Shown one piece after another: positions 50,687 to 56,859 of a stretch of DNA of 64,000 bases. The stretch lies in the NCBI RefSeq assembly GCF_055900595.2, contig NZ_CM148325.1, one strand, 5' to 3'. A program made the position numbers and the translations under genes. The notes under the pieces were generated by a model. That model searched no databases, was not told the origin of the DNA, and saw only the letters and a list, made by a program, of their open reading frames with translations. The stretch's first letter is position 1. Each line of letters opens with the position of its first letter.

Positions 50687-52270
50687 TCACACCTCGTACT
50701 CCATCTCGCCATCCTTATGCAGCGGAATAATCTGCACCTTCTGCACGCGATGGCTTTCCACCTGCAACGTTTTAAGCAAATAATCCCCCACCTGAACTTC
50801 TTCGCCAGGTTTTGGAATACGCTGTAAATATTCCATCAACAGCCCGGCAATGGTGTGATATTCACGTTTTTCATCCAGCGGCAGCGGCACATATTGCACC
50901 AGATCTTCCAGCGGCATATGACCATTCGCCGTCCAGGAACCGTCGGCATTCTTCTGAATATCATGGCGGGCGTCGATCTCTTCCACTTCGTTCGGTAAGT
51001 TACCGGCAATGGTTTCAGTGACGTCACTTAATGTCACAATCCCTTCCACCGAGCCAAACTCATCCACCACAAAAGCAAAGTGTGTGCGGGCATTACGGAA
51101 CTGCTCCAGGGCAGGTAACAACGGTAAAGTTTCCGGGAACACCAGCGGTTGGCGAATCAACACCCGCAGGTTGAGCGGTTCGCCGCGCAGTGACTGTTGT
51201 AACAGGTCGATAACGTGAACGACACCGAGCAAATCTTCTGCATCATCGCCGTCGGTAACGACCAGACGCGTGTGCTGATTTCGCTCCAGCAGCTGGCGGA
51301 TCTCCTCTTCTGGCGCGTTGAGATCGATATGCTCAATATCGTGGCGCGACGTCATGATGCTGCTGACAGTACGCTGGTTAAGATTAAGTACCCGCTCAAT
51401 CATCCGCCGTTCCTGCGGATTAAAGATCTGCTGGTTACCATGATCCACCAGCATGGACGCGGTTTCGGCATCCAGTTCCGCATCTTCTTTTTGCCCGCTA
51501 AGCAGGCGCATTACCGCTTCGGTAGTCCGCTGGCGCAGTGTCTGGTTAGCGGAAAGAAAACGTCGCCGGTTAAAGATAGCCAACTGATTGAGCGCCTCGA
51601 TCATCACCGAGAAACCAATGGCAGCATACAGATAGCCTTTCGGAATGACGAAGCCGAAACCTTCCGCCACCAGGCTAAAGCCAATCATCAACAGGAAACT
51701 TAGGCAGAGTATGACGATGGTCGGGTGACTGTTAACAAATTGCGTTAACGGCTTGCTTGCCATCAGCATCAGGCTGATCGCGATAACAACGGCGGCCATC
51801 ATGACCAGTAAATGGTCGACCATCCCGACGGCAGTAATCACCGAGTCAAGTGAGAAGATGGCGTCCAGTACCACAATTTGCGTCACCACGCCCCAGAACT
51901 TCGCACCTTTGCGTTGCGTGGGGTTATTGCTGTCTTTCCCCTCCAGCCGTTCGTTCAACTCCATCGTGGCTTTGAACAGCAGGAAGAAACCACCAAACAG
52001 CATGATTAAGTCGCGGGCGCTAAAGGTAAACGAGCGGAAGCTGAACAGTGGTTGAGTCAGGGTGACCAGCCAGGAGATTGACGCCAGCAGTAACAGGCGC
52101 ATTAACATTGCCAGCAGCAGCCCGGTAACCCGTGCGCGGTCGCGCTGCTTCGGCGGTAGTTTTTCGGCGAGGATGGCAATAAAGACCAGGTTATCAATGC
52201 CGAGGACCAGTTCGATCACAATCAGCGTGATTAACCCGGCCCAGATAGACGGATCGGCAATCCATTCCAT
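50687..52270 (-). CDS. yegH: TerC/CBS/CorC-domain membrane protein
   Basis: Start at internal ATG ([13 protein letters not shown]...), 527 aa. Confidence 0.88.
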
Positions 52271-52738
52271 AGTAAGTACAAAACCTATTCGTTGTATGAC
52301 AAATGTCACAATTCGATCATGGATAAATCGGGGCAAAAATGCAATGTTGCAGCACTATTTATCTCATATTATTTGAGGTTTATAACCTCACATTATCCCT
52401 GAATTAAAAGTGGTAATAATAAAACATTATTTAAGAAATATCGCATGTGGAGACACTATATTAAATATTGTCAACCTAAAGAAACTCCTAAAAACCATAT
52501 TGAATGACACTTAATATAATTCTTAAAAATAGCCAATTGCCGAATTGTTACCTTGCCTGCTATTCCGTTAGCTGTAACACTTCCTCCTGCATTATGGGAA
52601 GCCAATATTCAATTACCATAATGCCACCTTATATCTGGAAAATTAATTCACGGAATAACGCTTTTTCATAATCAACTGCATGATGAAAGAGTTAGAAAAT
52701 CTAAACTAAATCAGTGTATTGGTAGCTAAAAAGCCAGG

Positions 52739-52750
52739 GGCGGTAGCGTG
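52739..52750 (+). promoter_or_regulatory. ops element (GGCGGTAGCGTG) in JUMPStart, RfaH recruitment site in the wza leader
   Basis: Exact ops consensus GGCGGTAGnnTG about 180 nt upstream of wza. Confidence 0.85.
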
Positions 52751-52928
52751 TCTGGACGCCTGAGAGACCAGTCTGAATTATTCTGTCAATAGCCTGCGGA
52801 TGAAATCAATTTTTTTAGGACTGATGCCAGTTAAATTTTTATTCAATTAACTGCAAGGTAAATGTGCATGGCGACATTGCTATTAATAGTGCACAGGATA
52901 ATTACTCTGCCAAAGTGATAAATAAACA

Positions 52929-54068
52929 ATGATGAAATCCAAAATGAAATTGATGCCATTATTGGTGTCAGTAACCTTGATAAGCGGTTGCACAGTACTT
53001 CCGGGCAGCAATATGTCGACGATGGGTAAAGACGTCATCAAACAGCAGGATGCTGATTTCGATCTCGACAAAATGGTGAATGTTTATCCGCTGACCCCGC
53101 GCCTGATTGATCAATTACGCCCACGACCCAACGTCGCGCGCCCCAATATGACGCTGGAAAGCGAGATTGCCAATTATCAATATCGTGTCGGGCCGGGCGA
53201 CGTTCTTAATGTCACCGTCTGGGATCACCCGGAACTCACCACTCCAGCTGGTCAGTACCGCAGCTCCAGCGACACCGGCAACTGGGTACAGCCTGACGGC
53301 ACTATGTTCTACCCGTATATCGGCAAGGTTCACGTGGTGGGGAAAACGCTCGCTGAAATCCGCAGTGATATTACCGGGCGCTTAGCGACGTACATCGCTG
53401 ACCCGCAGGTGGACGTTAATATCGCCGCCTTCCGCTCGCAAAAAGCCTATATCTCCGGTCAGGTGAATAAATCCGGTCAACAGGCGATCACCAACGTACC
53501 ATTGACCATTCTCGACGCCATTAACGCCGCAGGTGGCCTGACCGATACCGCTGACTGGCGCAACGTGGTGCTAACACACAATGGTCGTGAAGAACGCATT
53601 TCTTTGCAGGCGCTGATGCAAAACGGCGACCTCAATCAGAACCGACTGCTTTACCCCGGCGATATTCTCTACGTGCCGCGTAATGATGATCTGAAAGTAT
53701 TTGTGATGGGTGAAGTGAAGAAACAGAGCACCCTGAAAATGGACTTTAGCGGCATGACCCTGACTGAAGCCCTGGGCAATGCTGAAGGCATCGACATGAC
53801 CACCTCCAACGCCAGCGGCATCTTTGTCATTCGTCCGCTGAAAGGCGAGGGCGGGCGTAACGGCAAGATTGCCAATATCTATCAGCTGGATATGTCCGAT
53901 GCCACGTCGCTGGTGATGGCGACAGAATTCCGCCTGCAGCCTTATGACGTGGTGTATGTCACCACCGCTCCGGTTTCCCGCTGGAACCGTCTGATCAATC
54001 AGTTGCTGCCAACTATTAGCGGTGTCCGTTACATGACGGATACAGCCAGCGACATTCATAACTGGTAA
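52929..54068 (+). CDS. wza: Outer-membrane polysaccharide export lipoprotein
   Basis: 379-aa ORF with lipobox LISGC. Confidence 0.95.
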
Positions 54069-56682: not shown

Positions 56683-56694
56683 CGAGATCCGCTG

Positions 56695-56815
<121 letters not shown>

Positions 56816-56859
56816 CTTATAAACCGGCAGAACATCTCGATACTCCGGGAGAACAACCT

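Follow-up and report, generated by a model that had tools for sequence, protein, structure and literature searches.

Candidate Rcs sites, candidate promoters and the JUMPstart/ops leader in the yegH–wza control region of Escherichia coli

Closest described systems

Rcs control has been documented for the wza/cps operon (PMC2478693, PMC11014345, PMC8117528), so that the Rcs activation of capsule transcription proposed in a previous sequence-only reading of this DNA was already established, and the mapped wza promoter has been remarked to have a -10 and a -35 element (PMC2478693). The RcsAB consensus is given as TaAGaatatTCctA, in which capitals are the conserved bases (PMC4325325, PMC3950696), and a structure-derived RcsB box reads TN(G/A)GAN4TC(T/C)NA (PMC7913699). 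The RcsAB box of rcsA is separated from its start site by about 170 bp (PMC11879457), and its Salmonella counterpart is at -264 (PMC7913699). In the K-12 rcsA upstream region we found TAAGGATTATCCGA 264 bp before the rcsA ATG, and the centre of the rprA RcsB box, TGAGACGAATCTGA, measured at -42.5; these two boxes serve as yardsticks below. The K-12 wza start site and RcsAB box were reportedly mapped by Stout (1996) and by Wehland and Bernhard (2000); together with Hobbs and Reeves (1994), these are the references for the K-12 wza promoter region with its RcsAB box and JUMPstart.

RNA polymerase pauses at ops, where RfaH loads on the exposed non-template strand, and RfaH operons tend to rely on RfaH-ribosome coupling. 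The RfaH/ops operons of E. coli (rfaQ, rfb/wzx, hly, kps and CFT073 wza; PMC9765446) share the 12-nt GGCGGTAGCGTG, placed within an untranslated leader on the non-template strand. In CFT073 the wza ops is this identical 12-mer at -190, in the UTR, and the start site is given as NA (PMC9765446 Data set S2). An RfaH ChIP signal is present at this ops in Δhns ΔstpA cells and absent in ΔrfaH, and in the wild type the wza promoter is silent and H-NS-bound (PMC9765446). Unlike the other RfaH/ops operons, wza has a promoter that stays silent under ordinary culture conditions unless Rcs activates it or H-NS is lost, and this is why RfaH occupancy was seen solely in Δhns ΔstpA cells.

Identity and boundaries of the locus

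The DNA analysed is a stretch of 64,000 nt, here called the window. By megablast its yegH–wza intergenic stretch is E. coli DNA that matches strain M160133 at 100% identity and K-12 at about 96%; of 5426 complete E. coli genomes, 4831 have it, most of them at about 96% identity. RefSeq annotation of M160133 and K-12 gives the gene order dgcE-udk-dcd-asmA-yegH / wza-wzb-wzc-wcaA-wcaB-wcaC, and in the identical strain M160133 yegH is on the minus strand and wza-wzb-wzc-wcaA-wcaB-wcaC are on the plus strand. The genes downstream of yegH/asmA are therefore in the order of the colanic-acid (cps/wca) cluster, which begins with:

52929–54068, plus strand: wza, first gene of the colanic-acid operon, an ORF with its ATG at 52929 (RefSeq WP_000978094.1 in M160133)

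The annotated yegH start codon is at 52270–52268, so that the intergenic region is 52271–52928, or 658 bp, and its GC content is 0.30–0.40 compared with 0.50–0.58 in yegH and wza. The AT-rich gap between the two genes that had been proposed from the sequence is thus real, but it is larger than the approximately 590 bp then counted from 52340, a boundary that arose from following the longest-ORF TTG start at 52336. Nor is all of it a leader, as had been supposed; the promoter is preceded by the Rcs-like box described below, and about 340–400 nt would be transcribed as leader. The stretch is very probably the divergent yegH/wza control region, made up of the colanic-acid (cps/wca) promoter and 5′ leader, with Rcs activation and with RfaH loading at ops. 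As such it is a textbook case of Rcs activation and RfaH anti-termination, already known and with no departure from the known system.

Two ORFs within the intergenic region, one of 55 aa on the plus strand and one on the minus strand that RefSeq calls a 'hypothetical protein', were rejected as coding, because each of them runs across promoter blocks and into the hypervariable spacer with its indels (described below). A 49-aa protein, WP_162829205.1, is annotated in many RefSeq E. coli genomes opposite wza (approximately 52471–52620 of the window, minus strand; 500–649 in aligned locus L084); overlapping the conserved promoter blocks and the variable spacer, it is probably a spurious gene call.

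One further feature lies inside the operon. The 177-bp gap between wzc and wcaA (56683–56859) is predicted to form a very strong fold (-69.9 kcal/mol, z -6.3) and looks like repeats of the REP/BIME type, and it is plausible that it acts as an internal barrier that RfaH-modified polymerase has to read through.

Conservation across genera and comparison with K-12

A scan of a genome collection with Wza gave 80 loci from about 25 genera. The 75 that have a recognisable ops and enough upstream sequence were aligned from 520 bp before to 200 bp after ops, and conservation was scored over a set of 68 sequences with identities below 95%. The region resolves in the 75-locus alignment into sharply bounded conserved blocks, among them the following:

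52295–52329 and 52336–52346: conserved blocks beside yegH
52546–52582: conserved block, TTGTTACCTTGCCTG...TTAGCTGTAACAC

The first of these, next to the yegH start, carries TATGA-N6-TCACA at 52295–52310, a 9/10 match to the CRP core, and then GATCATGGATAAA with a Dam site in it; this block probably belongs to yegH control.

Differences from K-12 in the wza (cps) region number 28 in total, but none of them touches the candidate Rcs sites M, P and P2, the two candidate promoters, JUMPstart/ops or the distal leader (all located below), which are base-for-base identical. In K-12 coordinates M corresponds to 2137727–2137740 and P to 2137682–2137695, and the candidate starts of promoters A and B fall at about 2137645–2137647 and 2137583. 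The Escherichia alleles compared have no substitution in any of these three Rcs sites, in the promoter blocks or in ops.

The ops site and JUMPstart element

52739–52750, plus strand (non-template strand): ops, GGCGGTAGCGTG, putative RfaH loading and pause site, exact, 190 nt before the wza ATG
52712–52750, plus strand: JUMPstart, a small hairpin followed by ops (Rfam RF01707), conservation at least 0.9 across genera

The ops motif had been placed at 52739–52750 from the letters alone, and it is indeed there, exact, on the wza strand and inside a full JUMPstart element. The match to RF01707 scores 57.3 bits, where the gathering score is 35 (E 4e-12), and covers positions 1–38 of the 38 in the model; no Rfam family other than JUMPstart was matched within 51800–53400. 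GGCGGTAGCGTG occurs as a single exact copy in the 64-kb window and in none of 100 shuffles, and the 12-nt GGCGGTAGnnTG is on the non-template strand downstream of both candidate start sites. The distance from ops to wza, 190 nt, is equal in CFT073 and in the window. Because RfaH has been found by ChIP at the identical CFT073 site (-190; PMC9765446), the RfaH half of the earlier reading, antitermination of capsule transcription, is both correct and already published.

The exact 12-mer is present in 62 of the 75 Enterobacteriaceae loci, which were chosen for a recognisable ops (GGCGGTAG at most 400 bp from wza), and the remainder vary solely at positions 10–12. That ops/JUMPstart might be a relic which no longer recruits RfaH at the wza operon could be argued from three Pseudescherichia-type loci that have lost JUMPstart and kept wza, and from the appearance of the RfaH signal at wza only when H-NS and StpA are missing. 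Against this, the 12-mer is exact, in the leader, on the non-template strand and kept in those 62 loci, and the ChIP signal at the identical CFT073 site disappears in ΔrfaH; we consider a relic extremely improbable. The three loci (L036, L037 and L040, from Pseudescherichia vulneris and two related genomes) have had the sequence upstream of about -115 replaced, including JUMPstart/ops and the Rcs boxes, and retain the distal leader and wza.

A candidate RcsAB box at 52432

52432–52445, plus strand: box M, candidate RcsAB box with two half-sites, TAAGAAATATCGCA, exact in the sequence and identical in K-12

The sequence-only reading had noted TAAGAAATATCGCA at these coordinates, which the exact sequence bears out, and had likened it to the RcsAB box. 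The likeness holds at every conserved position and in positional conservation, but not in overall motif score, which is no better than chance. Box M matches the consensus TaAGaatatTCctA at 9 of 14 positions; a consensus scan finds six matches with three or fewer mismatches in the window, where 3.8 are expected, and box M is not among them. It would not pass on a weight-matrix-like score alone, the kind of scan that had been proposed as one check. The core TNAGN5TCNNA is likewise no rarity, with 18 occurrences in the window against 21 expected, a rate that gives about 0.2 for the intergenic region. Box M nevertheless has T1, A3, G4, T10, C11 and A14, all six conserved consensus positions; no other 14-mer of 52271–52928, on either strand, has them all. 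It also lies upstream of the promoter, as a promoter-linked site should (about -88 with one candidate start, about -150 with the other), and is conserved among orthologs. It is conservation and position, not the motif score, that give it significance.

A core T-N-R-G-N5-TC-N2-A is found 45 ± 1 bp upstream of half-site P (below) in 44 of 64 non-redundant loci and 55–56 bp upstream in three more. Its form differs among genera (TAGGAAATATCGCA in Salmonella and Citrobacter, TGAGGATATTCCTA in Atlantibacter), and identity within the box is 0.5–0.9 in the conservation score over 68 sequences. In 45 box M loci, which were located by a fuzzy search that by its selection favours conservation, G4, A5, T10, C11 and A14 never vary, and the flanks show no conservation. 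The positions invariant in these fuzzy-matched loci are those that RcsB reportedly reads, TN(G/A)GAN4TC (PMC7913699), and information content falls to about 0.2 bit directly 3′ of the box. About one-quarter of the loci are without box M and have a distal box of the U type (below) instead.

The low motif score and the unremarkable count of cores in the window are what one would expect if TAAGAAATATCGCA were a chance resemblance in AT-rich DNA with no regulatory role. This is very improbable, however, given the fixed offset in 44 of 64 divergent loci, the collapse of conservation just 3′ of the box and the absence of substitutions in it among the Escherichia alleles compared, in which nearby bases vary. 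The comparative evidence thus indicates that box M is a real, selected Rcs-type element and not a chance match.

The rcsA box is the nearest parallel. TAAGGATTATCCGA and box M are identical at 10 of 14 positions and both have T1, A3, G4, T10, C11 and A14; positions 12–13 are GC in box M, CG in rcsA and CT in the consensus. Like box M, the rcsA box is far upstream of its promoter, and because it lies about 170 bp from its start, a position of -150 for box M is not unusual. Box M differs from it in having no A-tract after the box.

Neighbouring half-sites and a distal box

52468–52494, plus strand: TTGTCAA, then Rcs-like half-site P (TAAAGAAACTCCTA, 52477–52490), then an A-tract, conservation at least 0.9
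52510–52529, plus strand: CTTAATATAATTCTTAAAAA, either the -10 of candidate promoter A or half-site P2 (52512–52525), conservation at least 0.9
52353–52366, plus strand: distal, degenerate Rcs-like box U, CACTATTTATCTCA in E. coli, from the alignment of 75 wza upstream regions

P matches the consensus at 10 of 14 positions without having G4. Its right half, AATCCTAAAA, is almost invariant across genera and its left half is variable; G4-A5 is missing from the left half in E. coli, Salmonella and Citrobacter (TAAAG, TCAAT), so that only one half-site is intact. P2 also matches the consensus at 10 of 14 positions. The centre of P would be at about -43.5 under promoter A, where it would abut the missing -35 as in the rprA-type class II promoters that respond to RcsB only, and at about -105 under promoter B. 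E. coli P differs from the rprA box in having the right half-site alone, and it is best regarded as a candidate site.

Two almost invariant copies of AATCYTAAAA, ACTCCTAAAA at 52484–52493 and ATTCTTAAAA at 52519–52528, are 34–35 bp apart; the first follows the invariant TTGTCAA, and both are more conserved than box M. To judge by their letters, they look like RcsB right half-sites.

In E. coli only the right half of box U, ATTTATCTC, is conserved. It is a good box (TGAGATTTCTCTTA, TGAGATTAATCTTA) in Enterobacter, Lelliottia, Trabulsiella, Cedecea and others (loci L028, L038, L045, L067, L079 and L081); E. coli, Salmonella and Citrobacter have the degenerate form CACTATTTATCTCA, and U alone is kept by some genera without box M. 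This distribution of U and M suggests binding-site turnover. A 17-bp palindrome between them, TGAGGTTTATAACCTCA (52374–52390), was considered as a regulatory site and rejected, being imperfect in K-12 and unconserved across genera.

Candidate promoters and spacing

52553–52581, plus strand: candidate sigma-70 promoter B, TTGCCT, a 17-bp spacer and TGT-AACACT (extended -10), from block conservation and spacing

Candidate promoter A consists of TAATAT/TATAAT (52512–52520) with no -35; it would start near 52525–52527, give a leader of about 400 nt and place M at about -88. Promoter B would start near the G at 52589 and give a leader of about 340 nt; P2, P and M would then be at about -70, -105 and -150, respectively. 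The spacings between the conserved elements are:

TTGTCAA to P: 16 bp in 62 of 63 loci
P to P2: 34–35 bp in 60 of 64 loci
P2 to CTTGCCTG: 32–33 bp in 62 of 62 loci
CTTGCCTG to GCTGCAACAAT: 19 bp in 60 of 60 loci
GCTGCAACAAT block to ops: variable, 153–191 bp

Spacing is thus rigid from M through the block that ends at 52581, and length variation starts only after that block. Promoter B is favoured by this onset of variability right after its block, by a 17-bp spacer that is invariant in length and variable in sequence, and by the remark that the mapped promoter has both a -10 and a -35 (PMC2478693), and promoter A by the class-II-like position that it gives to P. A simple promoter and terminator consensus scan of the region found nothing, both A and B falling below it, as is expected of an activator-dependent promoter. 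A sigma-E promoter is said to be in RegulonDB; by eye we found no convincing match to GGAACTT-N16-TCAAA, and this candidate was rejected.

Which site is the published RcsAB box

A full-text literature search for TAAGAAATATCGCA gave no match, and none of the searched papers that cite the RcsAB box gives wza coordinates. The published box reportedly lies about 100 bp upstream of the mapped start, a distance that would fit M under promoter A and P under promoter B. The published box is probably M, the only full two-half-site Rcs box of the region in E. coli, Salmonella and Citrobacter, since P there keeps its right half-site (AATCCTAAAA) alone; that it is some element other than M or P is improbable.

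The functional, published RcsAB/RcsB site could instead be P (TAAAGAAACTCCTA, 52477–52490), perhaps together with 52512–52525, with M a secondary site for Rcs or for another factor. P has a right half and A-tract that are nearly invariant across genera and more so than M, a 10/14 match to the consensus, a near-perfect RcsAB box as its counterpart in Atlantibacter and Franconibacter (TGAGGCTAATCCTA, TGAGGATAATCCTA), and a position under promoter A, about -43.5, that compares with -42.5 for the rprA RcsB box (about -105 under promoter B). On the other hand its left half in E. coli, Salmonella and Citrobacter has lost the G4-A5 that RcsB-type boxes need, whereas M retains both half-sites and every conserved consensus position, and M at -150 is not anomalous when the RcsAB box of rcsA is also about 170 bp from its start (PMC11879457). 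We regard P as an unlikely, though far from negligible, choice, and M remains our preferred RcsAB box.

The leader

52594–52706, plus strand: length-variable leader spacer, poorly conserved (0–0.3 across genera)
52751–52928, plus strand: distal leader, with conserved blocks at 52778–52795, 52811–52835 and 52892–52928 in the conservation profile

Most of the differences from K-12 (22 of 28) fall within 52594–52701. Over 108 bp the leader spacer is about 20% divergent from K-12, compared with about 1% in the remaining intergenic region, and it has compensating 1-bp indels; an allele at least 99% identical to that of the window is found in 11 of the 4831 genomes.

The 40 nt before the wza ATG are highly conserved and contain no AGGAGG-type Shine-Dalgarno sequence, which would fit RfaH-ribosome coupling. 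RNAalifold found no covariation in the leader beyond the JUMPstart hairpin. For most genera a weak hairpin is predicted at about 52822–52856 (GATGCCAGTTAA...TTAACTGCA, -5 to -10 kcal/mol); base changes (ACTGC/ACGGC, ATGCC...GGCAT) preserve its pairing, but it has no RNAalifold support.

Proposed mechanism and implications

The elements, with their positions, conservation and rigid spacing, were observed here; that the operon depends on Rcs and that RfaH occupies the orthologous ops comes from published work, and the box bound by RcsAB, the promoter in use and the part played by the half-sites are inferred. Under envelope stress, phosphorylated RcsB together with RcsA would bind upstream and activate a weak, H-NS-silenced sigma-70 promoter. 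The most likely RcsAB site is TAAGAAATATCGCA (52432–52445), and the AATCYTAAAA half-sites at 52477–52494 and 52512–52529 may add RcsB contacts. Transcription would start near 52525–52527 or near 52589 and produce an untranslated leader of 340–400 nt. RNA polymerase is expected to pause at ops (52739–52750) inside JUMPstart, where the exposed non-template strand would recruit RfaH; the RfaH-modified polymerase would then resist Rho- and H-NS-imposed termination through the operon of about 20 genes, and RfaH may also aid translation of wza, which has no strong Shine-Dalgarno.

The value of this work lies in annotation: it gives base-exact positions for ops/JUMPstart and for the leading RcsAB-box candidate, and it revises the intergenic boundary. 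What appears mildly new is the cross-genus map, with its putative extra half-sites at rigid spacing and its apparent turnover of the U and M boxes. We suggest tentatively, as a reading that may well prove wrong, that these elements, instead of one RcsAB box with a promoter, form a rigid array of about 150 bp across the Enterobacteriaceae, comprising the full Rcs box at 52432, TTGTCAA, the two AATCYTAAAA half-sites and an invariant TTGCCT-N17-AACAAT promoter, and that the lineage of E. coli, Salmonella and Citrobacter has exchanged its distal box for the middle one. If this is true, there would be undescribed extra contacts by RcsB (or another factor) and possibly two Rcs-responsive start sites. 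The constraint map, built on 64–75 loci, could guide a re-examination of the number of Rcs sites and of start sites at the wza promoter.
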